Virus record (IMG/VR): IMGVR_UViG_3300032038_000042
Strand: one strand, 5' to 3'
DNA length: 29,972 nt
Origin: a virus
Lineage: Duplodnaviria; Heunggongvirae; Uroviricota; Caudoviricetes
A program made the translations under genes and the position numbers. The notes below the pieces were generated by a model, which ran no database searches, was not told where the DNA came from, and saw only the letters and a program-made list of their open reading frames with translations. Positions 1,659 through 29,613 of the stretch are shown piece after piece. Position 1 is the stretch's first letter. The number at the start of each line of letters is the position of its first letter.

Positions 1659-3398
1659 ATGCCTGGAAAAACAAATACAAATAACAATACTAAAAAGAGA
1701 TCAAGTGCTAATACTCGTACTCAGAAAAAGCCAATTTTTGCAGCTATACGTTCTGTATTTCAGCAAATGTGTAAAAAGGATGCTGTAGATGTTGCAACTA
1801 CAAAAGACCTGCAACAAGTAATGAAGTGGGGAAAAATAAGTCGAGAAGAAGCTCTTGTATTTTGTTTTTTTGCAACACAAGGTGTAAACGACTCGATGAG
1901 TTGGTGGCAATTTGAGGATATTCAAAATTATATAGATGTAGAGGTATGTGATTATGCTGAATACTTACCTGCACTTGACAACTTGATAACAAAAGGTTTT
2001 TTTGTTTTAAGATACGACATGAAGCATGTACCTGGTACAACAGATATCTTAACTTTCTTCCGACTTCCAGATGAGCTTATCAAAGCAATTTGCTACAATC
2101 AAAAGTTTACTCCGTACAAAAGAAGAGAGTCTGAAGCTGACAATAACTGTTTAGCATATTTGTATCGTGCAGCAAAAGAAGGTTTTATCGACAGACCCAA
2201 TTACTATTGGGATTTAATAAAAGCTATTTATAAAGAAGATGAAATTTTAAAAGAGTTTTTAGATCCTGCAACTACCTGGGGAGGTGATTTATCTAGAACA
2301 GAAGCTTTAATGCTTTTTACTAGAATTGGAATGACGTTAATTTCTCAGCAAGAACCAGTTACAGTAAAAGAATGCTTAGAGGACATTCGAGAAGGAGATC
2401 CCGCATTTGTTATTCGAATTTTAAAAGCATTTAAAAGCGAAACAACTCCTTTTCAACAAAAAGGTTACTTTGTAGTTGATAAAAGTAATTTTGGAGACGA
2501 TATAAAGCTTACATGGGGAGATGTAGCAAAGGATAAAATTTTCCAAGGGGATGCTCAACTCTTAATTGAGTCTACAAAAGTAAAAGAGCTTGGTGTAATT
2601 AAGAGCGATAAAATCAAAGAAAAGCATCTTTATTACAACGATGACAATCAAGCAGATATAGATCGTTTAAAAGGTTTGCTAGAGAATAAAAATTACATTG
2701 AAATGAGAAAACGCTTAGAAGAAAAGAATATGCCAAAAGGTTTAATCATTTTAATGTATGGTCCTCCTGGAACTGGTAAAACAGAGACTGCAATGCAACT
2801 TGCTCGTGAAACTGGTAGGGATCTTTTTCATGTAAATATTCAAGAGATAAGATCTTGCTGGGTTGGAGAGACAGAAAAGAATACAAAAAAGCTTTTTGAA
2901 ACTTATAAAAAGAATAAAAACGAGATTAAGCCTATTTTACTTTTTAACGAAGCTGATGGTATTGTTTCTAAACGTTCAAACTTGGATGACTCTGGAAATT
3001 CAGCTGTAAATAAAATGGAAAATAGCATGCAAAACATTATACTTGAGGAAATGGAAAACTTTGATGGTATAATGATATTAACAACAAACCTAGAAACGAA
3101 CCTCGATACAGCCTTTGACAGACGTATTCTTTTCAAAATTAAACTTGACAATCCATCTAAGGTTACAAAAGAAAAGATTTGGAAGGATAAACTCGATTTC
3201 TTAAAAGAGGAAAAAGATTTAGGTCAATTAACGGACTTTAACTTTAGTGGTGGCCAAATAGAAAATATACGTCGTAAAGTAACTTTGGATGAGCTACTTT
3301 ACGGTAAATTACCAAATATTGATACAATCGTAGATTTTTGTAAAAAAGAAAAATTAAGCGAAACTTCAAATGAACATCGCATTGGTTTCACTAGTTAA
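1659..3398 (+). CDS. Classical-clade AAA+ ATPase with a long N-terminal extension
   Basis: Walker A GPPGTGKT, pore loop WVG, variant Walker B ILLFNEAD, second region of homology TTN...LDTAFDRR, C-terminal RIGF. Confidence 0.92.
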   Translation: MPGKTNTNNNTKKRSSANTRTQKKPIFAAIRSVFQQMCKKDAVDVATTKDLQQVMKWGKISREEALVFCFFATQGVNDSMSWWQFEDIQNYIDVEVCDYAEYLPALDNLITKGFFVLRYDMKHVPGTTDILTFFRLPDELIKAICYNQKFTPYKRRESEADNNCLAYLYRAAKEGFIDRPNYYWDLIKAIYKEDEILKEFLDPATTWGGDLSRTEALMLFTRIGMTLISQQEPVTVKECLEDIREGDPAFVIRILKAFKSETTPFQQKGYFVVDKSNFGDDIKLTWGDVAKDKIFQGDAQLLIESTKVKELGVIKSDKIKEKHLYYNDDNQADIDRLKGLLENKNYIEMRKRLEEKNMPKGLIILMYGPPGTGKTETAMQLARETGRDLFHVNIQEIRSCWVGETEKNTKKLFETYKKNKNEIKPILLFNEADGIVSKRSNLDDSGNSAVNKMENSMQNIILEEMENFDGIMILTTNLETNLDTAFDRRILFKIKLDNPSKVTKEKIWKDKLDFLKEEKDLGQLTDFNFSGGQIENIRRKVTLDELLYGKLPNIDTIVDFCKKEKLSETSNEHRIGFTS

Positions 3399-3699: not shown

Positions 3700-4185
3700 T
3701 TAAGCGTTTGGTTTTGCTTCTACGTTAGCTTTCGCTTTAGTATCCGTATTAGTACTTTCTACAGTTTCCTTTGCTGCTTCTTTCTGCTCTGCAACAAGTT
3801 TTTCGTACTCCTCTTTTGAAATGAAAACTGGAGCAATCTTTACCTGTCCAGGAGTTCCGTTTGGTTCCTTTGGATAGTTAGCAACTATATTCTTCTTCCA
3901 CCAATCTGAAACGCAAGCAAGACAAATACAATCTGAGCTAGATATTGGATGAACTTTTCCATCTTCTTCGCTTTTCATATAAGTTGTATACTTAATGATG
4001 CGACTTGCACGTGTAATATCACCGTGAACCGGACAGAAAGATCTCAAACCTGCAAGTACCTGACCCTCTGGAGGTGTAAGTATGCTTTTTGCTTCTTCCA
4101 TCTGCTTTTTGTTTTCTTCAAGCATCTCTTTACTAATGTTAAGAACAGGAATGTCTACAGCTTCTTCTTTTTTCTCTTCTGACAT
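3700..4185 (-). CDS. Hypothetical protein with a possible zinc site
   Basis: 161 aa, AGGAG SD, CPVH and CICLAC motifs, charged termini. Confidence 0.75.
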   Translation of the reverse strand: MSEEKKEEAVDIPVLNISKEMLEENKKQMEEAKSILTPPEGQVLAGLRSFCPVHGDITRASRIIKYTTYMKSEEDGKVHPISSSDCICLACVSDWWKKNIVANYPKEPNGTPGQVKIAPVFISKEEYEKLVAEQKEAAKETVESTNTDTKAKANVEAKPNA

Positions 4186-8146: not shown

Positions 8147-11065
8147 TTAATTCCACTCTCCACCGTCTATAACAGAGTTGTTATTAAGTATAATACCAGA
8201 ATGGTTTGGAAGTACGTTTTCTACAGGATGTGCAGTAGGTCTTTCAGAAGGATTAAGTACCTCAACTACTGTACCATCTGCAGCCCCAAGTTCGTAATCT
8301 AATGGAGCATATGGATCTGAACTGAACTTAAACAATTGAGCTTCTGTAAGTTTAGCGTATACAGATAAAGTGCTAAAGTTGTTTGACAAGTTCTCGTCAT
8401 AAGATGGTTCTACCGCGTGGGAATCGTAGAAGAGATTCAAAGCTAACGAATGAGATGCGTCATATACTTCTCTAACTTTGCTGTCAAAAATCTCTTTTAC
8501 AGGTTCGTTATCTTTGTCGTAAACTTGATTACCATCTTCGTCAAGTTTGTTACGTACAGTTTGTAACCACTCAATGTGGCCTTTTGTTGAATCACTAATA
8601 ACTTCTTCATATAAGTCATCAATGATTGCTTTAATAACTGTAAAGCCCTGGTTTACGTACTCTTCTGTAGTTAAAATACCAGAATACTGAGGTAAACTCA
8701 AGTTAGGTTCTTTTTCAAGATCTATACTAAACTTATAAGGATCTTCAAGATCTGGCAAATGTCGGAACTCTTCAAAGTTTAATCCGCTCTTTGTGCTATC
8801 TTTAATCCTTGTAGTCTTTACAGTAACTTCTACTCCTTCTGTATTTGGATCTCTTACGACAATATCGTCGAAGAAATACTCGCGGGTTTTTGGATTTGAA
8901 TCTTCTGGAGCAAACCATCTGAAACTTGTTGCATACAAACCGTATTCGGCATAACTTGAACTTCCAAAGCTTACTTTTACACCAGTTTCGTCATCTATAA
9001 GCTCGAGTCTAGAATCAAGAGCATAACCTTTAGCTGTAATAACTGGAATAAAGTTCTGATGAGTTAAAGCATCAAGATTCTCATCCTTAAATAAAACAGC
9101 AGCTGGATTTGTAAATGTAACTGTTGTTGAATCTGCTTCAATGTGTGTCTCTTTAGCTTGAACTGTATTTGTTACAGAATCGCCATCTACATACCTGCTA
9201 AGTTTTTCTGGATCTCTGAGAGGATGTAAGAAGTTTACAACACTTGCAACTTTTACACCATCAACTAAAATACCGATGAAGGAGCTTGAATTGTCGATAA
9301 TTTCAAAACGTTGTGTTTCGCCATTGTAAATTACCCAGTCACCTTTGTTAAGCATGTGAGTTGCATGCTTTGTGATAATTTCAATTAACTTATCCCTTTC
9401 AGCATTAAGTTGAGCAATAACATCTTCGTCAGTCTCGTTTGCAAGCCTTTCTTGTATTTCTGAAAGTCTTTTCTTTTCCTCTGCATTTGCAGCATTAAAG
9501 TCGTCTGGATCACTGTCTAAATGGAACAAGCTTGTATAATCTGAAATGTCTACAGATTCACCTTGATATATCCAATAGCAACCACTCTTAAGCTTTTCGT
9601 TTACTGCATCGCTACCACTTACTTGATTTGCTGCGTCTGTAGCACCTGCATCTGTTGCATCTTCAGATTCATCTAAGTTTTCCCAATTAGGACGTCCTTT
9701 AGTTAGAAGTACATTTTGAACGAAGTTTGTTACTGTAGTTTCGCTTGTTACATTCTCCCAATCTTCAAGTGCAGCTGTAAAGTGTCCTTGATATTTTGGA
9801 GCACCAAGTAAGAAGTCTGGTAACTGAGATGAGATAATTTTGTGTGTAGTCGGATCAATATCAACTTTTGTTAAGAACAACCTATCAATAAAGGACTGAA
9901 GATTGTCATGTAATGTAAAGTAGTCATCATCTCCAGTATAAGCGTCAGGTATACCATTTTTCCAAATATCTGTAGCATACTGATCTGCACGACCATTAAA
10001 CTTTAACTGAAGTTCCTGGAAAAGAGCGCTGTAAAGAGAAACAACTTTGTGCTTTACACCACCATCACTACTTGGTACGGATAAAATCAAATCACCTTCG
10101 TGTAAAGTTACATTAGCGAGCTCAGGTGCTATCTTGCTAATGTTGTAAACATTTCTACCTTTGTTTGTTTCTGCAAAAGGAATGTAATGTATGTAACCGT
10201 CTCCATCCTCGTTAAGTGTAACTACACCAGGTGTAACGGTAACTTCATTTGTTTCTTCATCCCTTGTAATTTCACAAAGAACTGAGATTTCTACTGGATT
10301 CCATCCAAACTCTTCTGTTAAATACTGATAGTGTCTAGCAGGTCCATCTAAAAAAGCTTTTAGTGTAGCAGCTTTAGTTTCTCCGTCTCCTTCATCTAAT
10401 AACGATCTCATTGAATTGGATACTAAAGCTTCTACGTTAATTTTTGTTAAAGCATCTGATGACCGACCCATTGGAAGTACAACAACCTGATCAAGAGCTG
10501 CACTGTAGAATACCAAATCACCAGGATTTATAGAGTTGTACCATTCACTGTAATTTGTATTACCTTGGGAATCTACACCAGCTACAAATGGTCTATCTAC
10601 TGTATTTGGTTGTCCTTGACCTACTACATTCTTGTAAGAATCTCTTTGGTCGTCTGCTGTGTACAACTTAATTGTGCTTGCACCGTTGTACAAAAAGATA
10701 AAGTTCGGATACTTTTTAATTTCTTCTTCAATATCTTCGAAGCTTGTTTTATCAAAAAGTACACCTCCCCACTTTAAAGATGAACCTGATCCAATTACGT
10801 AAACTTGTTTAGAGCTGTTGTTTCCAGCAAACAAATCACCTTGGAAAATTTTTCTAACATAAGACTGAGTTACGATATCATAAATTTCTGTAGCACCGGG
10901 TGTATAAGGAGTTGCATCTGTTTGAAGGAACAATTCTCCTTTTGCAAGTGGTTTGTCTAACAAGCGAGCTTGCAACTTACCTCTTGCAATTTGAACTACT
11001 TGACCTTTTTTATGAGTCTCAGCTGCAGGAGTTGGTATTACTGGGATTTCTTCTGTATCTGGCAT
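8147..11065 (-). CDS. Large acidic virion protein, tail-fibre-like; paralog of 11134..13959
   Basis: 972 aa. N-terminal VQIARG...LAKGELF resembles phage fibre N-termini. GD-hydrophobic repeats, LPxxSG motifs, ends IDGGEWN. Confidence 0.6.
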   Translation of the reverse strand: MPDTEEIPVIPTPAAETHKKGQVVQIARGKLQARLLDKPLAKGELFLQTDATPYTPGATEIYDIVTQSYVRKIFQGDLFAGNNSSKQVYVIGSGSSLKWGGVLFDKTSFEDIEEEIKKYPNFIFLYNGASTIKLYTADDQRDSYKNVVGQGQPNTVDRPFVAGVDSQGNTNYSEWYNSINPGDLVFYSAALDQVVVLPMGRSSDALTKINVEALVSNSMRSLLDEGDGETKAATLKAFLDGPARHYQYLTEEFGWNPVEISVLCEITRDEETNEVTVTPGVVTLNEDGDGYIHYIPFAETNKGRNVYNISKIAPELANVTLHEGDLILSVPSSDGGVKHKVVSLYSALFQELQLKFNGRADQYATDIWKNGIPDAYTGDDDYFTLHDNLQSFIDRLFLTKVDIDPTTHKIISSQLPDFLLGAPKYQGHFTAALEDWENVTSETTVTNFVQNVLLTKGRPNWENLDESEDATDAGATDAANQVSGSDAVNEKLKSGCYWIYQGESVDISDYTSLFHLDSDPDDFNAANAEEKKRLSEIQERLANETDEDVIAQLNAERDKLIEIITKHATHMLNKGDWVIYNGETQRFEIIDNSSSFIGILVDGVKVASVVNFLHPLRDPEKLSRYVDGDSVTNTVQAKETHIEADSTTVTFTNPAAVLFKDENLDALTHQNFIPVITAKGYALDSRLELIDDETGVKVSFGSSSYAEYGLYATSFRWFAPEDSNPKTREYFFDDIVVRDPNTEGVEVTVKTTRIKDSTKSGLNFEEFRHLPDLEDPYKFSIDLEKEPNLSLPQYSGILTTEEYVNQGFTVIKAIIDDLYEEVISDSTKGHIEWLQTVRNKLDEDGNQVYDKDNEPVKEIFDSKVREVYDASHSLALNLFYDSHAVEPSYDENLSNNFSTLSVYAKLTEAQLFKFSSDPYAPLDYELGAADGTVVEVLNPSERPTAHPVENVLPNHSGIILNNNSVIDGGEWN

Positions 11066-11133: not shown

Positions 11134-13959
11134 GTGCCTACACCAAAAATTAAACATAGCAGAGGAGATGTATATTTAGGTAACCAAGCTGGACTTGAGG
11201 ACGGCCAATTTTTCTATTCATTTGTAAACCAGGACAAAAATACATCAGATAACCATACATACTCCGAAGGTCAGTTATGGATAAAAGATCCATCTTCAGA
11301 AGACTTAACAGAAATTGCAAATAGGCGCTCTCTAAAATCTCTTACATTCAGAGGATGGATATATAAGAGTTTTAAAGGTGATTTTTTAAACGCAAACGAT
11401 TCTACCGAAATTGCATTTAGTCATTGTCATGAAGGTGATTTTTGGATTTTAGATTACACAACAGACTCAACTACAAGTTTTACTACAAAGTTTAGAAAAG
11501 GTGATATACTTTTAATTACAAAAGCAGAATATACTATAGACTTAAATACTGAAAACGCTTTTAGGGATAAATTAAAAAATGTAGAGTATATTAAGATTCC
11601 TTTACCAAACTTAGATACAGATGATTCAGACTTAAACGAAGGTGATTATACAGATACAGTTAAACAACTAGAACAGCGTTTAAACTACAGAGGTGAGTTA
11701 GCAAGCGCTACAGATTTAGCTTCTGTTGATGCAAAAGTTGGATACACATATGTAGTTACAAAGCGCTTTGAAGTTCTTAAGAATCGTTTTGATACAGATA
11801 AGGAAAGAAATAAAGCTAGACAACCAAATGAGCTTGGTTACATAACTTTACGTGTTGGTGACCTGATAAAATATAATGGTGAAACTTGGACAATTATTCC
11901 AATTGGTCAAGCTGTTTCTGACATTATTTACATACCAAACGAAATTGCAATAGATAATGTAGACTCTTTTTCACCAGAACATAAAGAGCAATTAAAAAGC
12001 GCTAGAAACGTTTCTGAAGCTTTAGATATATTAAATATTACAAAAGCTCATTTAGGTGCAGATGGAAGGATTCCATACGAGGAATTACCAGAAGCTGTCG
12101 CACACGGTTTAACTTTACAAGGTCTTTGGCATCCTTTAACAGACATTGCTTTAACTGGAGAAATCTTCGATGCAAACGATCCTGCTAACCAAGCTGATTG
12201 GCCTATTAAAGATGAAAACTTTTCAAATTTATTCTGGATTGTAGATTGCGATGGAAAAGTAAACGTACAATATCATGATAAAACCGTTAAAAATCGTATA
12301 ATCGAATTTAACACTGGTGACTTTATTGTTTTCAGTACAGAAACAAAACGTTTTGAAGTAGTTGACAACTCAGATAGGTTAACATCTATTACAGTAACCA
12401 TTCCAACTGTTGCAGGTAAAAAACAGACTTTATTAGGTGATGTTGGAATTACAGCTGATAATAAAATTAAATTAAAAATAGATGGTAATCAAATTATCAT
12501 TGGCGGTGACAGACTTATAAGTCAAAGTTTACTTTCAGATGGAGAGCAAGGATATTTTCCAATATACTCTGGCGATGGAACAGAATTTGCTTGTAGTACA
12601 TTATATCAAGACCTTGAAACAAATACTATATACTCTAAACTTGGATTTCAAATTGGTACTTTAAATGATCCTAGTGATATAATCGATTATGGAAATATTG
12701 GAATTAGAAAAACACGCGGTGCTACAAAAACAACTTTTACAAATAATTTCTTCTTTATAGATTCTGCATCGACATTAAAATACAGTAACGGAGTTTTTTA
12801 CAGAACTACAAGGATAAGACCTAGCGAGAGAAATACTTTTGCAACTGCAGATGAAGAAATAGATATTTTCTTCCCAGAAGCTAGTTCTACAATGCTTGGT
12901 GTTTTCTTAAACGACTCTTTAACACGAAACTATTTATCAAAAGCAAACTACGATGGTTTTGTTACAGACTCTTTAACATCTGAACAATTTGTAAACGCTG
13001 CAGATGCTTCTTATGAAAGAGATGGTTTTAAAGAAAACTTCGAGCAAGGTTTTTCAAATGTAGGTATTGGACGTTCAACAGCTGAAGATAGCGAAACAGG
13101 TGAAATTACTTTTTATGCAAAATCAAAAGATAGATTATCTAGTCGTGGAGGTTTCTACGTACAGTTACACTCTATTTTAAATCTTAAAAGCCAAGGTGCA
13201 GACAAAGTAGAGCATTTACTTAGAAGAGAAAAAACTAGTAGAACACACTTGATCATTAATCCGACCGTATTGGAAGATGATATAGAAACTTTTGTTAACA
13301 TGCCAACTTGCTCTGGTACACTTTTAACATGGGAAGAATTATTAGCTATGTTTAGTAGAGGTGTACCATTAATGCTTCCAGCTTGGGAGCTAATGAATTT
13401 TAGGTTTAGAAAAGGTTTAATTGGTTTAGACACATCTCCAGTTACAATTAAAATAAATAGACCAGCTCACGATAACGTAGAGATAGATAGAGTAAACGAT
13501 TTAGGAGAAAACTACGGCGCTGGAGATAAATCAACCTGGTCTTATATAGATTCAAGTAAAAAAGGATCTTTACAAGATGATACCCGTGGTAGAATTGACG
13601 ATGTTGTTAGTTTTGACTCTTGGCTTGAAGCGCAAAGATCTATTGCAACTAAAGAAGCTTTTATTATACCTTCTACAGCTAAAAAAGATGGTAACGCTGT
13701 TGTTGATCCTGAGACATTAGATTATATAAAGGATCCAGAAGAAACAAAAAACGATACCTACGGAAAAAATAAAGCAGGTGGAAAATATCAAAGATTACTT
13801 CCATCTAGAACACTTTACGAAGATGAGCCTGTTTATTTCGATCCGGTTACAGGTAAAGAGTTACCTCAAAATACACGTCTAAAAGATGTAGAAATGCCTG
13901 CAGTCGGAGGAGTACTTTTAACTTCTAGATCCCGTATAGAAGGTGGAGTTTGGCTTTGA
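11134..13959 (+). CDS. Large virion protein, tail-fibre-like; paralog of 8147..11065
   Basis: 941 aa, GTG start after GGAG. Shares LP...QG, GD(W/F)...RFE(I/V)(I/V)DNS and terminal (D/E)GGxW motifs with its neighbour. Confidence 0.6.
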   Translation: MPTPKIKHSRGDVYLGNQAGLEDGQFFYSFVNQDKNTSDNHTYSEGQLWIKDPSSEDLTEIANRRSLKSLTFRGWIYKSFKGDFLNANDSTEIAFSHCHEGDFWILDYTTDSTTSFTTKFRKGDILLITKAEYTIDLNTENAFRDKLKNVEYIKIPLPNLDTDDSDLNEGDYTDTVKQLEQRLNYRGELASATDLASVDAKVGYTYVVTKRFEVLKNRFDTDKERNKARQPNELGYITLRVGDLIKYNGETWTIIPIGQAVSDIIYIPNEIAIDNVDSFSPEHKEQLKSARNVSEALDILNITKAHLGADGRIPYEELPEAVAHGLTLQGLWHPLTDIALTGEIFDANDPANQADWPIKDENFSNLFWIVDCDGKVNVQYHDKTVKNRIIEFNTGDFIVFSTETKRFEVVDNSDRLTSITVTIPTVAGKKQTLLGDVGITADNKIKLKIDGNQIIIGGDRLISQSLLSDGEQGYFPIYSGDGTEFACSTLYQDLETNTIYSKLGFQIGTLNDPSDIIDYGNIGIRKTRGATKTTFTNNFFFIDSASTLKYSNGVFYRTTRIRPSERNTFATADEEIDIFFPEASSTMLGVFLNDSLTRNYLSKANYDGFVTDSLTSEQFVNAADASYERDGFKENFEQGFSNVGIGRSTAEDSETGEITFYAKSKDRLSSRGGFYVQLHSILNLKSQGADKVEHLLRREKTSRTHLIINPTVLEDDIETFVNMPTCSGTLLTWEELLAMFSRGVPLMLPAWELMNFRFRKGLIGLDTSPVTIKINRPAHDNVEIDRVNDLGENYGAGDKSTWSYIDSSKKGSLQDDTRGRIDDVVSFDSWLEAQRSIATKEAFIIPSTAKKDGNAVVDPETLDYIKDPEETKNDTYGKNKAGGKYQRLLPSRTLYEDEPVYFDPVTGKELPQNTRLKDVEMPAVGGVLLTSRSRIEGGVWL

Positions 13960-14391: not shown

Positions 14392-14535
14392 TTAAATCTT
14401 TTCGCATTCAAAATAAAGAAAAACGAGTGAGTTAGACTTTACAGTTTTGTAAATTACATAACCATCTAAAGCCATCTCACTACAAACATCCTCAATCTCG
14501 TATACGGTTGGATTTTCAAGTACTTTTACTTTCAT
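14392..14535 (-). CDS. Small hypothetical protein (47 aa, not in the ORF track)
   Basis: MKVKVLENPTVYEIEDVCSEMALDGY...ECEKI. Its ATG overlaps the TGA of 14532..14807 (ATGA coupling). Confidence 0.55.
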   Translation of the reverse strand: MKVKVLENPTVYEIEDVCSEMALDGYVIYKTVKSNSLVFLYFECEKI

Positions 14536-14807
14536 AGTGTTTGACCTTCAGGATATATAATTTTTTCTGTTTTGAAATGTCTAAAATGTGTTTTGGATGC
14601 AGCAGTAATTAATTCCTGCAACTGTTGAGCATGCTCCAGTATTTTAGCCTTTGTAGATTCGTCCAAATCCTTTAACGAGATTCCAAATACATCCGATTCT
14701 GTCAAACCAGTAACAAATACATCTCTATCCTCCAAAAGACCTGTTTTAGAGGAAGGATATTTAAAAGTGTTTTCCTGAAAAACTTTTAACATATTGCTCT
14801 TATTCAA
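14532..14807 (-). CDS. Hypothetical protein
   Basis: 91-aa ORF, TTG start with AGGAG upstream, in a minus-strand operon. Confidence 0.7.
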   Translation of the reverse strand: MNKSNMLKVFQENTFKYPSSKTGLLEDRDVFVTGLTESDVFGISLKDLDESTKAKILEHAQQLQELITAASKTHFRHFKTEKIIYPEGQTL

Positions 14808-14812
14808 AATGA

Positions 14813-15175
14813 TTACTTCTCCTTTGTAATGTTTCTTTTTTGGATTTCTTCGTGCAAAAACTTTTTACGATTTTTTAGTCTCTGATAACTTACGAGAGTT
14901 TGTCTGTACCTTTCTTTAGCTGCAAAATACTGCTTGTAGACTTCAGCTCTTTTTAAACCCGGAATACCTGGCTGTGTACAGATAGCCTTGTAAGAGTTTT
15001 TTAGCTTCATAAAGCGAAGGAATTCATCTTTAAGTATGTAAGCTTTGTAGCGTTGCAGTTCTTTTGCTACGTTAGTTTCTTCTTGAAAGATACCGTTTGC
15101 TTCGTAATCTAAACAGTCTTTTTCCGTACTAAACTCGGAACCATCAATAGCGATGTATTTTGTAATAATTTTCAT
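14813..15175 (-). CDS. Hypothetical phage protein
   Basis: 120 aa. The N-terminal YIAIDGSEFSTEKDCLDYE pattern is common in small phage proteins. Confidence 0.75.
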   Translation of the reverse strand: MKIITKYIAIDGSEFSTEKDCLDYEANGIFQEETNVAKELQRYKAYILKDEFLRFMKLKNSYKAICTQPGIPGLKRAEVYKQYFAAKERYRQTLVSYQRLKNRKKFLHEEIQKRNITKEK

Positions 15176-17902: not shown

Positions 17903-18298
17903 ATGAAGAAGTTTTGTTTGTTTGTTTGTTTGTTTGTTTGTTTGTTTGTTTGTTTGTTTGTAGGATGTGGAAATCCTTCAAACTCTTCAGATTCTGAAGC
18001 TACTTATATGTACGAAGGTGGTATCATACCAAGAACACAAATGGTGTTTAGAACTGATTGCACCTATTCAGAAATAAATAGTGCAAAAAATTACTTTCGT
18101 CAAATCACGATAGATGATTATTTTATAGAACATGATGTGCATATAGAAGAAATTCAAGAATTTTTACTGGAACATTCATCTAGAAGTGAAACCGAAACTG
18201 TTATAAATGCATTAAACAATACAGGAAATTGCATATGCTATTTTAACATAAATGGTAGGCCAGACTATGTATATTGGGTATACGGTCAAATAGAATAA
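17903..18298 (+). CDS. Lipoprotein with a simple-sequence-repeat-encoded signal peptide
   Basis: AGGAG SD, MKK, hydrophobic F(CLFV)4, lipobox LFVG-C and a Ser/Asn-rich tether. Confidence 0.8.
   Translation: MKKFCLFVCLFVCLFVCLFVGCGNPSNSSDSEATYMYEGGIIPRTQMVFRTDCTYSEINSAKNYFRQITIDDYFIEHDVHIEEIQEFLLEHSSRSETETVINALNNTGNCICYFNINGRPDYVYWVYGQIE
17913..17960 (+). repeat. Perfect tetranucleotide microsatellite (TTTG)12
   Basis: 48 bp, 12 uninterrupted units, counted directly. Confidence 0.97.
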
Positions 18299-22477: not shown

Positions 22478-23653
22478 TTACCTTTCCACTACATCAGGAC
22501 TAGAAATCGAAGGTACAAGTTTTTCGCAATCTTTTATATCTTTTCGCTCAAGCTTTTTATTTTCGGTTTCTCCGGTTTTTAAAGCTTCAAGAATTTCTTC
22601 AGAAGTTAGTATAGAATATTTACGAATGTCAGAAATTACTTTTTTAGCTTTAATTTTTCTCTTTTTACGTTCTACATCATCCGCGCAGTAAGCACCTAAT
22701 CCAATTTTCTCTAAAAGATCTTCTTCTTTAATATCGACATTGTCTAACCTAAAAATGTATCCTCCAAAGTTAAAACCACCTTCTTTATTATCCTTATAAA
22801 GACTAGCTCCGCTAGTTTTTCTCATTAGCATATAAAGAGAAGATTTTACAACATAAAAATTAATGCTTAAGTCTATAGACTCTATAGAACTTACTGGAAA
22901 AATTACACCTTTTTGCGCTTGAATATTATTTACATATTCAACGTTGTTTATATGCTTTGTTTTTCTTAAAGGAAAAGTTAGTTTTGGAAACTTTGAAGGA
23001 TTACAAATTCTACTCTTAATATGAGTTTCATAAATTGTTTTTAACTCTTCCTCAAAAGAAAGTGCATCATCGTTCATGCAGTATGCACAATCAAACGTTT
23101 CTGCTTTCTCTAAGATTTCGTTTTTAATTCTTCCCGCGAAAAAAGCTGTAAAAGGTTGCTGAACCATTCCATTCATATGCTCAACACACGGATCTGCAAA
23201 CTGCTCATTTCCTAGAAAATGAATACCTTTTACTAGACCTGGATAAAGATAGTTTAATATTAAACCTTGTAAAGCAACAAAAGGAGTCATGTTAGGATCA
23301 AATATTAAAGAAAAAAGCATTACACTTTCTCCTTTTTCCAAATATCTTAAAGTTAAAGAAAGAGAGTCATAACCACCACTGAACATAATTAAATGTTTAG
23401 CAGATGATGAGTCCTTATTATTGTACTTTTGAAGGTACTTTGTTAACTCTTTTGAAGAAATATATCTACCGTTTTTGTAAAGTTTTTTATCTAAGCTTGT
23501 AAATATTTCCAAAGTTTCGTCATAATTGTTTAAAACCTTAAAAGCGTTTACAGTAATCGGTGCACTATAATGCGCATTACAAACAAAAGACTCTTTGATA
23601 AAATTGTTTTTAATTTTCAACTTTACATTATCTTTATCTTTAAGCTTTTCCAT
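22478..23653 (-). CDS. PP-loop (HUP superfamily) ATP pyrophosphatase, QueC-like N-terminal motif
   Basis: LIMFSGGYDS PP-loop and a later FPL motif. No QueC-type C-terminal Cys cluster. Confidence 0.7.
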   Translation of the reverse strand: MEKLKDKDNVKLKIKNNFIKESFVCNAHYSAPITVNAFKVLNNYDETLEIFTSLDKKLYKNGRYISSKELTKYLQKYNNKDSSSAKHLIMFSGGYDSLSLTLRYLEKGESVMLFSLIFDPNMTPFVALQGLILNYLYPGLVKGIHFLGNEQFADPCVEHMNGMVQQPFTAFFAGRIKNEILEKAETFDCAYCMNDDALSFEEELKTIYETHIKSRICNPSKFPKLTFPLRKTKHINNVEYVNNIQAQKGVIFPVSSIESIDLSINFYVVKSSLYMLMRKTSGASLYKDNKEGGFNFGGYIFRLDNVDIKEEDLLEKIGLGAYCADDVERKKRKIKAKKVISDIRKYSILTSEEILEALKTGETENKKLERKDIKDCEKLVPSISSPDVVER

Positions 23654-27249: not shown

Positions 27250-27303
27250 GTATGCGTCTCCGTTTCTATTATTTAGTGGTAAAAAACATTTTTAGAAAAA
27301 TAT

Positions 27304-27333
27304 TGAACTTTTTTTGTATCCACTAACTATATT
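27304..27333 (+). promoter_or_regulatory. Putative promoter of the tRNA operon
   Basis: TGAACTTTTT-N14-TATATT. Confidence 0.7.
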
Positions 27334-27406
27334 ACAAGTGTCAGTTAGGAAAAACAACAAAAGGCACTCATTGATAATGAAGATTTTTAATTAAAGGGGT
27401 ATGTAT

Positions 27407-27526
27407 ATGTTTAAGGTTTTTGCTAAAACAACAGTTACGTTTAACACAAAACATAGCAATAATACTATGCATACTAATACATGCACAAAATGTTTCTTTA
27501 ATAACAAGAAATTGAGGGCGAGTTGA
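27407..27526 (+). CDS. Putative attenuator leader peptide of the tRNA operon (39 aa)
   Basis: AAGGGG SD 7 nt upstream. MFKVFAKTTVTFNTKHSNNTMHTNTCTKCFFNNKKLRAS*. Alternative in-frame ATG at 27401. Confidence 0.75.
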   Translation: MFKVFAKTTVTFNTKHSNNTMHTNTCTKCFFNNKKLRAS

Positions 27527-27584
27527 GTCTTTAATGAATGTTGAATTTTTTGAAGGCTTAACTCGAAAGGGTTAAGCCTTTTTT
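27519..27584 (+). promoter_or_regulatory. Mutually exclusive antiterminator / terminator
   Basis: Terminator 27553-27564:27569-27580 with GAAA loop and T run. Antiterminator 27519-27531:27553-27565 (13 bp, 2 G-U) covers the leader stop codon. Confidence 0.8.
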
Positions 27585-27680
27585 ATTGGAGTTTTTTAAG
27601 AAAATGAGAGGAAATGCGAAAGTGGCTGCTACAACAGCAGCCTTAGATAAAGCCCTTTAATTCTTTTTGAGCAGATACAA

Positions 27681-27765
27681 GGGCCGGTACGTTAATTGGT
27701 TAACGAACAGACTTTTAATCTGTAGGAGTTTTTTCCTGATGCGGGTTCGAGTCCCGTCCGGCTCA
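27681..27765 (+). tRNA. trnK: tRNA-Lys(UUU) with an atypical long variable arm
   Basis: Cloverleaf GGGCCGG/CCGGCTC, anticodon loop CTTTTAA, 17-nt variable region, T loop TTCGAGT. Confidence 0.85.
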
Positions 27766-27778
27766 AGAAGAATTATTA

Positions 27779-27850
27779 GGGCGTGTGGCACAGAGGTTGT
27801 GCACCAAACTTTTAATTTGGATAAGGTAGGTTCGAGTCCTATCACGCTCA
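27779..27850 (+). tRNA. trnK: tRNA-Lys(UUU)
   Basis: GGGCGTG/CACGCTC, CCAAA-CTTTTAA-TTTGG, GTAGG-TTCGAGT-CCTAT. Confidence 0.92.
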
Positions 27851-27907
27851 GCAATATAGCTGCTAGACTTCCTTCCAGTCTTAGAAGTCGTTCACATATT
27901 TTTTTTT

Positions 27908-27981
27908 GGATCGTTAGCTCCAACGGTTAGAGCGGAGGATTGTTAATCCTAAGGTTGCAGGTTCGAATCCTGCACGATCCG
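27908..27981 (+). tRNA. trnN: tRNA-Asn(GUU)
   Basis: GGATCGT/ACGATCC, loop TTGTTAA, discriminator G. Confidence 0.93.
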
Positions 27982-27984
27982 AGA

Positions 27985-28042
27985 GGTAGATATAGGAGTT
28001 CAGTTCGATTCTGAATTTAAGTTGGTCAATCCTTAAGCTACC
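27985..28042 (+). ncRNA. Small tRNA-mimic (T arm plus loop-closed stem)
   Basis: GGTAG/CTACC closing stem, TTCAG-TTCGATT-CTGAA T arm, adjacent TTTAAG/CTTAAG hairpin. Confidence 0.5.
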
Positions 28043-28049
28043 ATTTTAT

Positions 28050-28121
28050 GGGGACTTAATTCAAGCGGTAGAATAGTGGACTGAAAATCCATATGTGAGG
28101 GTTCGAACACCTCAGTTCCCA
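28050..28121 (+). tRNA. trnF: tRNA-Phe(GAA)
   Basis: GGGGACT/AGTTCCC, GTGGA-CTGAAAA-TCCAT. Confidence 0.9.
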
Positions 28122-28124
28122 AAT

Positions 28125-28203
28125 ATAAAAAGCATAAGGTGTTCCTATTTTTGCTGATGAAGCAATACACTGGTAATGTATTTTATTACACCTCGCTTTT
28201 TAT
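28125..28203 (+). ncRNA. Small RNA sharing its terminal stem with the permuted tRNA; carries a GGU anticodon-like stem-loop
   Basis: AAAAGC-ATA-AGGTGT-TCCTATTT ... TT-ACACCT-C-GCTTTT enclosing ATACA-CTGGTAA-TGTAT. Confidence 0.65.
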
Positions 28204-28210
28204 TTTTTAT

Positions 28211-28285
28211 GGTGCTTGTGGTGGAGTGGTCTAACACGCTTGACTGTGGATCAAGATTTCGTCGGTCCGAATCCGACCAAGTACC
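28211..28285 (+). tRNA. trnH: tRNA-His(GUG)
   Basis: G-1:C73 pair, CTTGA-CTGTGGA-TCAAG, variant T loop TCCGAAT. Confidence 0.92.
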
Positions 28286-28291
28286 CCGATT

Positions 28292-28404
28292 AGTAAATCT
28301 TTCGAGTTTACGATGGTGGAGTAGCAACCAGAAAAGCGGGCAACAGCGTTGCACTGACCTGCTGAATGGCTAAGCCAGACTGGAAGAGTTGCTAAAGATT
28401 TACT
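28292..28404 (+). ncRNA. Unassigned structured RNA between tRNA-His and tRNA-Thr
   Basis: AGTAAATCTT/AAGATTTACT and TAGCAAC/GTTGCTA stems enclose a multi-branch core (GCGGG/CCTGC, TGGC/GCCA). Confidence 0.6.
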
Positions 28405-28410
28405 TTTTAT

Positions 28411-28483
28411 GCTACAATAGCTCAATTGGCAGAGCACGTGATTTGTAATCTCGGGGTTGTGGGTTCAATTCCTACTTGTAGCT
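28411..28483 (+). tRNA. trnT: tRNA-Thr(UGU)
   Basis: GCTACAA/TTGTAGC, loop TTTGTAA. Confidence 0.93.
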
Positions 28484-28486
28484 TTA

Positions 28487-28558
28487 GACCCGTTCGCCAA
28501 GTGGTAAGGCTCCGATCTGCAAAATCGGTATACATGAGTCCGATTCTCATACGGGTCT
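28487..28558 (+). tRNA. trnC: tRNA-Cys(GCA)
   Basis: GACCCGT/ACGGGTC, CCGAT-CTGCAAA-ATCGG, discriminator T, variant T loop TCCGATT. Confidence 0.92.
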
Positions 28559-28563
28559 CTTTT

Positions 28564-28686
28564 AAAAGCAAAGGTTGTTCCTATTTAAAGATTGTTAATC
28601 CGTGTGTCGATGGTTCGAGTCCATCCAATTTCCGAAAGGAAGTTGTAGCTCAGCTGGTAGAGCAACGTAAATTACAACTCGCTTTT
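28564..28686 (+). ncRNA. Circularly permuted tRNA-Asn(GUU) mimic with Y-RNA (YrlA)-like topology
   Basis: Order is anticodon loop, T arm, acceptor 3' strand, GAAA, acceptor 5' strand, D arm. The ends are joined by a bulged terminal stem. Confidence 0.85.
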
Positions 28687-28694
28687 AATTTCAT

Positions 28695-28766
28695 GGGCTC
28701 GTAGCTCAAAGGAAGAGTAAAGGTCTCTTAAACCTTAGGTTGTGGTGTCAGGGTCCACCGAGCTCA
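28695..28766 (+). tRNA. trnK: tRNA-Lys(CUU) with a non-canonical T loop
   Basis: GGGCTCG/CGAGCTC, AAGGT-CTCTTAA-ACCTT, T arm GTGG-TGTCAGGGT-CCAC. Confidence 0.8.
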
Positions 28767-28804
28767 AAACCTAAAAAGTAATTTAAAAAAAATGAAAAAA
28801 CTTT

Positions 28805-28834
28805 TGAACTTTTTGAAAGTTTTTTACATATAAT
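28805..28834 (+). promoter_or_regulatory. Putative promoter of the second tRNA unit
   Basis: TGAACTTTTT-N14-TATAAT. Confidence 0.7.
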
Positions 28835-28869
28835 ATTGTATATAACGAGTAAGAAACGTTATAAAGTTT

Positions 28870-28942
28870 GCCCTATTAGCTCAGTGGAAGAGCACTCGCC
28901 CTGTAAGCGAGCGGTCATTGGTTCGAATCCAAATATAGGGCT
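28870..28942 (+). tRNA. trnT: tRNA-Thr(UGU) with C33
   Basis: GCCCTAT/ATAGGGC, CTCGC-CCTGTAA-GCGAG, short variable loop. Confidence 0.85.
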
Positions 28943-28944
28943 TT

Positions 28945-29274
28945 ATGAGTAGAAGTTATAAAAAAGAAATCGGTTTCGGTAAATCTACTTTTGGTTATGC
29001 AACTCGAACAAAAAAGACAAGAGTTGACTATGCAAACAAAAGAAGACGAAAGAAAGGATTGCCAATTGTTAAGCAGCATTTTCGTTCCGATATGCAAACG
29101 GTGGAAGATTACATTGATTGGATTAAAAGAGATTTTGAGCCAAGAGGTTATGTAATTTGTCATTTTAATGCTTACTACAAGATTTATCAAGAGTGGCTTA
29201 ATGGTCGTAAAGAAACAGAAGAGCTCATTAGAGAGTATGCTGTTAAGCTTTACAATCGCGATAAATCGAAATAG
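28945..29274 (+). CDS. Basic hypothetical protein within the tRNA cluster
   Basis: 109 aa, MSRSYKK start, K/R-rich. The ATG is 2 nt after the tRNA-Thr 3' end. Confidence 0.8.
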   Translation: MSRSYKKEIGFGKSTFGYATRTKKTRVDYANKRRRKKGLPIVKQHFRSDMQTVEDYIDWIKRDFEPRGYVICHFNAYYKIYQEWLNGRKETEELIREYAVKLYNRDKSK

Positions 29275-29281
29275 TTTGTAT

Positions 29282-29355
29282 GGAGTGTTAGCTCAGTTGG
29301 TAGTAGCAAGCGGCTGTTAACCGCTAGGTCGCAAGTTCGAACCTTGCACACTCCG
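29282..29355 (+). tRNA. trnN: tRNA-Asn(GUU)
   Basis: GGAGTGT/ACACTCC, AGCGG-CTGTTAA-CCGCT, discriminator G. Confidence 0.93.
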
Positions 29356-29361
29356 CTTCAA

Positions 29362-29474
29362 CGTTAATAAAGCCGAGGTAGCGAAACGGGTCACCTAGGA
29401 AGGAGTGGCAGTGAGGTAGCGAAGGTTTAGATGCGGTAGACGTTTTAGAAATTCGCGAATCCGATGAATTAACG
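29362..29474 (+). ncRNA. Unassigned structured RNA with repeated GAGGTAGCGAA
   Basis: CGTTAAT/ATTAACG closing stem, 11-nt direct repeat at 29375 and 29413, GTCAC/GTGGC hairpin. Confidence 0.5.
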
Positions 29475-29499
29475 ACAAGAAAAAATTTCTAGTTTTTTT

Positions 29500-29535
29500 G
29501 GCAGGTTTTCACTCCCAAAAACCTGCTACTTTTTT
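29500..29535 (+). terminator. Probable terminator
   Basis: GGCAGGTTTT / AAAACCTGCT followed by a T run. Confidence 0.6.
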
Positions 29536-29537
29536 GT

Positions 29538-29611
29538 GCTGGAGAAGTTCATAAGGCTTGAACGTCGGACTCATATTCCGAATGTAGTTGGTTCGAATCC
29601 AACCTTCAGTA
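29538..29611 (+). tRNA. tRNA with CAU anticodon (elongator Met or lysidine-modified Ile2)
   Basis: GCTGGAG/CTTCAGT, TCGGA-CTCATAT-TCCGA, GTTGG-TTCGAAT-CCAAC. Confidence 0.88.
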
Positions 29612-29613
29612 AA

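Follow-up and report, generated by a model that had tools for sequence, protein, structure and literature searches.

A 39-codon open reading frame (ORF) in front of a phage tRNA array is probably the sensing part of a ribosome-mediated transcription attenuator that gives feedback on tRNA supply. Judging from the sequence, we put the probability of this reading at about 0.8. The ORF lies in the window, a 29,972-nucleotide stretch of viral DNA (Caudoviricetes; IMG/VR record IMGVR_UViG_3300032038_000042) that appears to come from a tailed jumbo phage. The element combines the structural features of a leader attenuator, namely a Shine-Dalgarno (SD) sequence with an ORF, cognate codons, a predicted terminator and a mutually exclusive antiterminator; the genes downstream are tRNAs and not genes for biosynthesis, transport or a synthetase. 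Attenuation had been proposed in a first-pass annotation of the window, and four lines of analysis now favour it: the composition of the leader, the co-variation of leader codons with tRNA content, compensatory changes in the competing helices, and folding with a masking ribosome.

The leader is largely written in codons that its own array reads

The promoter, leader, terminator and tRNA genes of the window are on the plus strand. Ten of its tRNA genes were found by ARAGORN, and the one at 28695–28766 by Rfam. The array, termed C, begins with tRNA-Lys(UUU) at 27681–27765, whose long variable arm is unusual for tRNA-Lys, followed by a second tRNA-Lys(UUU) (27779–27850), tRNA-Asn(GUU) (27907–27982), tRNA-Phe(GAA) (28049–28122), tRNA-His(GUG) (28212–28287), tRNA-Thr(UGU) (28411–28483) and tRNA-Cys(GCA) (28487–28559), all of them also recognized by Rfam, and by tRNA-Lys(CUU) (28695–28766; RF00005, 47.3 bits, anticodon read by eye). 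Beyond a second promoter-like site lies a distal part (28870–29612) with tRNA-Thr(UGU) (28870–28942), a 109-aa ORF (28945–29274), tRNA-Asn(GUU) (29282–29356) and a CAU tRNA (29537–29612).

The leader ORF (27407–27526) has its ATG 7 nt downstream of the SD-like sequence AAAGGGG (27393–27399; AAAGGAG in several near strains) and translates as the first-pass annotation had claimed. Thr (8), Lys (6), Asn (6), Phe (5), His (2), Cys (2) and Met (2) make up 31 of the 39 residues; Asp, Glu, Gly, Ile, Pro, Gln, Trp and Tyr are missing, and codons 11–35 include a single non-cognate residue, all as originally described. Both Lys codons occur (AAA four times, AAG twice), and Lys-UUU and Lys-CUU tRNAs are both present. 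The use of ACA for five of the eight Thr codons had been counted correctly but says little, since 52% of the Thr codons in genes of related phages are ACA.

With superwobble, the window's array can decode 30 of the 38 codons that follow the start, compared with 11.5 expected from the usage of 7,255 codons in the window's genes (binomial P 9e-10); with strict wobble it reads 28 of the 38. Met had been included on account of the CAU tRNA. It does belong to the residue set of the leader, but the CAU tRNA stands behind the second promoter-like site, and when Met is left out 29 of 38 codons still match (P 5e-9). None of 8,776 stop-free shuffles with equal base composition reached 30, their mean being 14.1. 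AT richness does not explain the match, as had been argued for the excess of Thr, His and Cys.

Different leaders precede different tRNA arrays in relatives

Seven distant loci, six from metagenomes and one from a genome bin, were found through a neighbouring gene. Four of them (L004, L005, L006 and L127) adjoin an array different from that of the window, array A, with Pro-UGG, Tyr-GUA, Leu-UAA, Gln-UUG, Ile-UAU, Leu-CAA, Gln-CUG, Trp and Ser-UGA tRNAs, not all of them at each locus. Each array A has the same promoter motif, an SD, an ORF of 34–38 codons and a terminator. L002 holds only the end of an array, and L001 and L003 have none. L127 belongs to the genome bin G001, a second contig of which, L158, carries two more units. 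One of them consists of leader B, with 28 codons, and an array of Ser-GCU, Glu, Ala, Ile-GAU, Gly, Asp, Leu-UAG, Val and Cys tRNAs, with a CAU tRNA and Arg-UCU further on. The other has the G001 version of leader C, with 29 codons, in front of Thr-UGU, Lys-UUU and Asn tRNAs, after which the contig breaks off. In the relatives and the window, the anticodons of Tyr, Ile-UAU, Ala, intron-split Leu-UAA, CAU and Lys-CUU tRNAs were read by eye. As the four A leaders are near-identical, the leaders represent three independent families.

Leader codons co-vary with tRNA content over these three different arrays, and the leaders fit their own. Scored with superwobble, the window leader has 30 of 38 codons read by C, 10 by B and 1 by A. 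G001 leader C has 25 of 28 read by C (the window's C set was used for scoring), and leader B has 24 of 27 read by B and none by A. The four A leaders have 15–20 of their 33–37 codons read by A, 11–12 by B and 6 by C. With strict wobble the A leaders match at 10–14 codons, a weak match (binomial P 0.003–0.065, shuffle P 0.05–0.33), and none of them contains a Trp codon, though the arrays of L005 and L127 include tRNA-Trp. A tRNA-Cys gene is found in array C of the window, where the leader has two Cys codons, and in array B of G001, where leader B has one and leader C none.

The tRNA sets of A, B and C are disjoint except for Cys and Met, and jointly they read 57 of the 61 sense codons, all but CGN. 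We infer that the three units belong to one phage because they have the motif and GC content in common and lie among homologous genes; one contig of 332,326 bases is on record with an A leader as well as the C leader. In arrays A and B, group I introns and homing-endonuclease genes lie in and between tRNA genes (L004 9899–10190, L005 13955–14290, L006 12938–13440, L158 6510–7600), and tRNA-Leu-UAA is split at differing anticodon positions.

Promoters and the reach of the switch

A promoter had been placed at 27304–27333. The predicted promoter (27303–27333) consists of TTGAAC (27303–27308) and the motif CCACTAACTATA (27320–27331), which runs into the −10-like TATATT (27328–27333). The site departs from the sigma-70 standard, TTGAAC and TATATT being separated by 19 nt, and was not listed by a promoter scan, but CCACTAACTATA is a family motif that stands 5′ of all seven leaders and of four other G001 genes. 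RNA-library contigs show neither strand nor transcript ends, and the parts they leave uncovered were not counted as evidence. Their listed pieces start at 27333–27348, and pieces covering the divergent gene end at 27256 (two studies), which gives a weak hint of the start of leader transcription.

Because promoter-like sites lie inside or before the arrays, some genes of each array may escape control by the leader. In G001, arrays A and B both contain CTATA(A/T)T sites of this kind, and the window has a similar one at 28826. With regard to a promoter of the tRNA genes' own, downstream of 27585, the two parts of array C differ. In the proximal part, a search of 27585–28800 with the family motif found no promoter, and a generic scan listed one site (28389–28418), in a region with fewer sites than its shuffles. 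The distal part is preceded by the putative second promoter-like site (28805–28835; TTGAAC, 19 nt, TATAAT), and its Thr, ORF, Asn and CAU genes may be transcribed independently of the attenuator.

A predicted terminator and antiterminator compete for the same arm

Downstream of the ORF, folding predicts an intrinsic terminator-like hairpin with a T-tract (27553–27584), in agreement with the first-pass annotation: the hairpin spans 27553–27580 with 12 bp and −16.9 kcal/mol, followed by T27579–27584. A predicted antiterminator (27519–27565) pairs 27519–27534, that is, the last codons, the stop and 8 nt beyond, with 27550–27565. The pairing of the ORF end with the 5′ arm of the terminator is real, and it extends over 16 bp rather than the 13 bp first given. 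Compensatory change was assessed on two sequences, the window leader and G001 leader C: all 14 antiterminator pairs compared are kept, two of them altered on both sides, and all 12 terminator pairs are kept, again with two altered on both sides. Position 27564 co-varies with its partner in both alternative helices.

For ribosome-masked folding, a 28-nt footprint was blocked and the ribosome moved codon by codon. In the window, the antiterminator gives way to the terminator only once no more than about five codons separate the ribosome from the stop, as the attenuator reading had anticipated. At equilibrium, the probability of the terminator is at most 0.10 on the free RNA or with the ribosome at codons 2–26, noisy at codons 27–31 (0.14–0.44), at most 0.05 at codons 32–34, and 0.92–0.98 at codons 35–40. 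The A leaders, which have an upstream competing helix, form the terminator with a probability of 0.8 when free and near 0 with the ribosome at about codons 21–30. A protector helix was not evident in the folded window leader, and its untranslated state is therefore predicted to read through. In G001 leader C the terminator stands at 0.85–0.96 at all but one position, with a ribosome or none, so that a switch there would need an antiterminator that forms first and persists. In co-transcriptional snapshots, taken before the 3′ arm emerges, the antiterminator persists in all seven leaders up to the point where the ribosome enters the last 2–6 codon positions. By comparison of equilibrium and snapshot folding, the switch of the window leader is clean and that of G001 leader C depends on folding order.

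In the proposed mechanism, a ribosome keeping pace with RNA polymerase would reach the last 4–5 codons and cover 27519–27534, which would free the 5′ arm of the terminator and stop transcription near 27584. If the ribosome were delayed at an earlier codon, or absent, the antiterminator would stay and the polymerase would read through into the tRNA genes. The leader would in this way serve as a test message for the tRNAs of its own array, and new tRNAs would speed its decoding and shut off their own synthesis, a negative feedback. Translation, coupling, termination and feedback are proposed here by analogy with known attenuators.

Termination might also not be the controlled step: a translation-coupled switch could act post-transcriptionally, on how the tRNA precursor is processed or how stable it is, or the polymerase could be uncoupled from the ribosome. 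No pause site or pause hairpin was identified in the leaders, as this alternative would have it, and G001 leader C shows no switch in equilibrium folding. The leader lies within contigs of all four RNA-library runs (three studies), and in three of the four runs contigs cross the terminator, though contigs do not show single transcripts; one contig, from one study only, ends at 27594, which speaks for termination. Since a T-tract follows the hairpin in seven of seven leaders and the hairpin pairs are kept by compensatory change, we regard this alternative as unlikely.

The signal that the leader would sense

A likely trigger for a transcription attenuator of this kind would be defence nucleases that cut host tRNAs, for which the first-pass annotation had named the anticodon nucleases PrrC and AriB as examples. 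A ribosome that stalls has no means of distinguishing the causes, and cleaved, poorly charged or merely scarce tRNA would all slow it during infection. In the most far-reaching version, jumbo phages would run a codon-resolved surveillance in which a cut host tRNA switches on only the operon holding its replacement; we consider this tentative, a little short of even odds.

The choice among isoacceptors bears on this. Arrays A and B divide the isoacceptors of Ser, Leu and Ile between them, and the codons of leader B conform to this split: all five of its Ser codons are AGY and both Leu codons CTN (P about 3e-4 relative to phage usage), fitting Ser-GCU and Leu-UAG of array B. The A leaders use TCN for 5–6 of 6–7 Ser codons and TTR for 14 of 15 Leu codons, which is not significant alone. 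The split argues against a switch for amino-acid starvation or general translation stress, whose match to the array would be a by-product of tRNAs being grouped by amino acid. Such a switch would have precedent in classical attenuators, which, according to PMC1183508, work by ribosome stalling on uncharged tRNA. The folded leader also reads through by default when no ribosome is on it, so that any translation block would open the switch. More tRNA, however, would be no cure for a shortage of amino acids, and we think starvation or stress sensing quite improbable as the function.

Variation among close relatives

The leader ORF is conserved in near relatives, as the attenuator reading had supposed, with promoter, ORF and terminator kept in contigs of four DNA runs. 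G27398A, in the SD, is found in three of the four DNA runs and three of the four RNA-library runs. C27519T is the only change in the ORF among the differences listed (145 more over 2.8 kb) and turns an antiterminator C-G pair into U-G; A27534G, in the near-strain DNA runs, turns an A-U pair of the same helix into G-U. In several near strains the two Lys-UUU genes (within 27600–27860) are swapped for 154–172 other letters; in three of the four DNA runs the substitute has 154–158.

The leader peptide is one of 19 clustered variants, and the most frequent of them is found on 381 contigs of up to 422 kb. The 15 variants listed have 38–41 residues, 30–33 of them in the Thr/Lys/Asn/Phe/His/Cys/Met set. 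Rare variants often switch to non-cognate residues, and because many of them leave the residue set, single leader positions appear not to be tightly constrained. The 82–92% identity of the 39-aa sequence across these 15 near variants, together with its Cys and His residues, could suggest that the peptide itself is a functional small protein and that the terminator merely ends its mRNA. The peptide of G001 leader C, however, keeps the composition and not the length, order or cysteines, leaders A and B share the RNA layout with no sequence in common, and a Pfam search with the leader peptide gave no match, which makes a functional peptide scarcely probable.

Occurrence of the layout elsewhere

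We screened for a short ORF with an antiterminator at a terminator, using a detector that was written after the leaders had been seen. In family DNA it was positive at 7 of 97 terminator-like hairpins, all before tRNA genes (some loci overlap). It found none among 107 terminators in a further 170 kb without arrays, and was positive at 1 of 32 terminators in DNA from elsewhere, a hit that no tRNA gene follows. That an AT-rich ORF merely lies beside a hairpin whose self-complementarity mimics an antiterminator is largely refuted by the shuffles, the compensatory changes and this screen, and hardly credible: AT-rich DNA favours Lys, Asn and Phe codons and the finding was selected after the fact, but no shuffle attained the observed match, two further arrays, found independently via the neighbouring gene, are preceded by the same layout written in other codons that fit them, and the layout is missing elsewhere in the screened family DNA.

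In viral_contigs, no family member was found with three proteins or an alignment of neighbours as queries, two helix patterns gave 0 matches there, and two promoter patterns gave 120 and 18 loci, none with the leader layout. Among annotated phages, matches to the window fell only inside tRNAs, and the 941-aa protein was unmatched. The detector found no leader in six tRNA regions of named phages, a negative that says little because some of these stretches exclude the 5′ end of the array. Among 401 genomes of the phylum of G001 the promoter pattern occurred in five and leaders in G001 only, and among 401 genomes of its family the phage helicase (E <= 1e-120) was in G001 only. The open-access literature matches listed include no attenuator on tRNA genes, in phage tRNA arrays or on a phage tRNA operon, in line with the first-pass annotation, which knew of none.

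Other RNAs of the arrays and the source phage

Between tRNA-Cys and tRNA-Lys(CUU) lies a YrlA (Y RNA)-like RNA (28562–28694; RF02553, 46.6 bits, E 1.9e-8, under the gathering score of 69). Its 5′ side has a relic Asn anticodon loop that is missing in the copies of L005 and L006; a circularly permuted tRNA-Asn at 28585–28691 was considered and is disfavoured by the Rfam YrlA match and the anticodon-less copies in relatives. Each array has several copies of a repeated stem, its 5′ strand of the GUUCCUAU type, that closes around tRNA-like or short variable inserts: in the window at 28562–28694 and 28127–28206, with the best copy scoring as YrlA-like, in L004 at ~10390–10450, in L006 at 13426–13550, in L005 at ~14490–14545, ~14905–14965 and ~15050–15175, and in L158 at ~3215–3360, ~3920–3985 and ~2195–2280. 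Together these elements may represent a family of phage Y RNAs. Neither the 19 window proteins scanned nor the incomplete bin G001 yielded a Ro60 (TROVE) gene.

Array C holds further non-coding stretches. A 113-nt insert between tRNA-His and tRNA-Thr (28291–28403) folds into a long hairpin of −32 kcal/mol and is missing from contigs of all four near-strain DNA runs. A structured stretch at 29358–29535, with a terminator-like hairpin at its end directly before the CAU tRNA, is present in RNA-library contigs and has no Rfam match. At 27983–28046 there is a tRNA-like remnant with a T-loop motif ahead of a D-loop motif.

Besides a baseplate-hub-like protein whose closest clusters are viral, the window encodes DnaB-like and DnaC-like genes, and its 109-aa protein also occurs on a 394.5-kb contig. 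No capsid or terminase was assigned confidently, and a terminase search (PF03237) of the G001 bin gave no match. The best DNA matches of the window come from gut metagenomes, many with bovine or sheep labels, and the phages whose tRNA arrays stand behind such leaders are a family of rumen jumbo phages. One relative was binned in a genome labelled Treponema, which weakly suggests Treponema as the host. The family DNA includes PurZ-like synthetase, tRNA nucleotidyltransferase and QueC/QueD-like genes (L210 51–1142 and 8658–9545, L215 13432–15027, L218 4986–5867, window 22478–23653), hinting at modified DNA bases and tRNA repair. At L006 8536–9760 a gene like peptidyl-tRNA hydrolase is apparently split by an endonuclease-bearing insert; this gene (phrog_1866), which we take to resemble peptidyl-tRNA hydrolase, is uninterrupted in L001, L003 and L004. 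A lipoprotein-like ORF at 17903–18298 of the window has a tandem CLFV repeat within its signal region.

Relation to known systems

The trp, his, leu and pheA attenuators, and the multivalent ones of thr, ilvGMEDA and ilvBN, likewise have a short ORF with regulatory codons that overlaps an antiterminator competing with a terminator, and their codon choice can follow isoacceptors (PMC1183508). By analogy, the phage units would work like the multivalent thr and ilv attenuators, but on tRNA genes. Unlike the attenuators of amino-acid operons, the phage leaders would control tRNAs, with 7–11 amino acids per leader and three leaders that divide the code. The pheST (pheM) attenuator of E. coli also gives feedback on the supply of charged tRNA, by way of phenylalanyl-tRNA synthetase; it differs in sensing one amino acid, in controlling a synthetase and in being chromosomal. 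T-box riboswitches operate the same terminator/antiterminator switch on tRNA state, but they bind uncharged tRNA directly and need no ORF, and no T-box family is among the 20 Rfam matches of the window at E <= 1.

In the open-access literature searched, the nearest published analogue of the phage leader units is the trn operon of Anabaena, a silent tRNA array that is induced by translational stress and repressed by TrcR (PMC8421152, PMC10272220). Its control is exerted by a protein repressor at initiation and is not codon-specific, unlike that of the phage leaders; 'attenuat' and 'leader' occur 0 times in PMC8421152. The rsr-yrlBA-rtcBA operon of Salmonella responds to damaged tRNAs through the CARF protein RtcR, which binds tRNA fragments (PMC7790460). 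It shares YrlA with the YrlA-like RNA of the window's array, but its sensor is a protein and not the ribosome.

Why phages carry tRNAs has long been asked; the leading proposals are that the tRNAs compensate for codon usage or stand in for host tRNAs that have been cleaved (PMC10264068, PMC7824862). If the attenuator reading is true, attenuation extends from amino-acid enzymes to tRNA genes, and the leaders would be compact natural sensors for tRNA-cleaving defence systems. The question of phage tRNAs would also become approachable without phage culture, as a 250-nt leader should respond to the depletion of particular tRNAs. The phages themselves would be monitoring tRNA supply and responding on demand.
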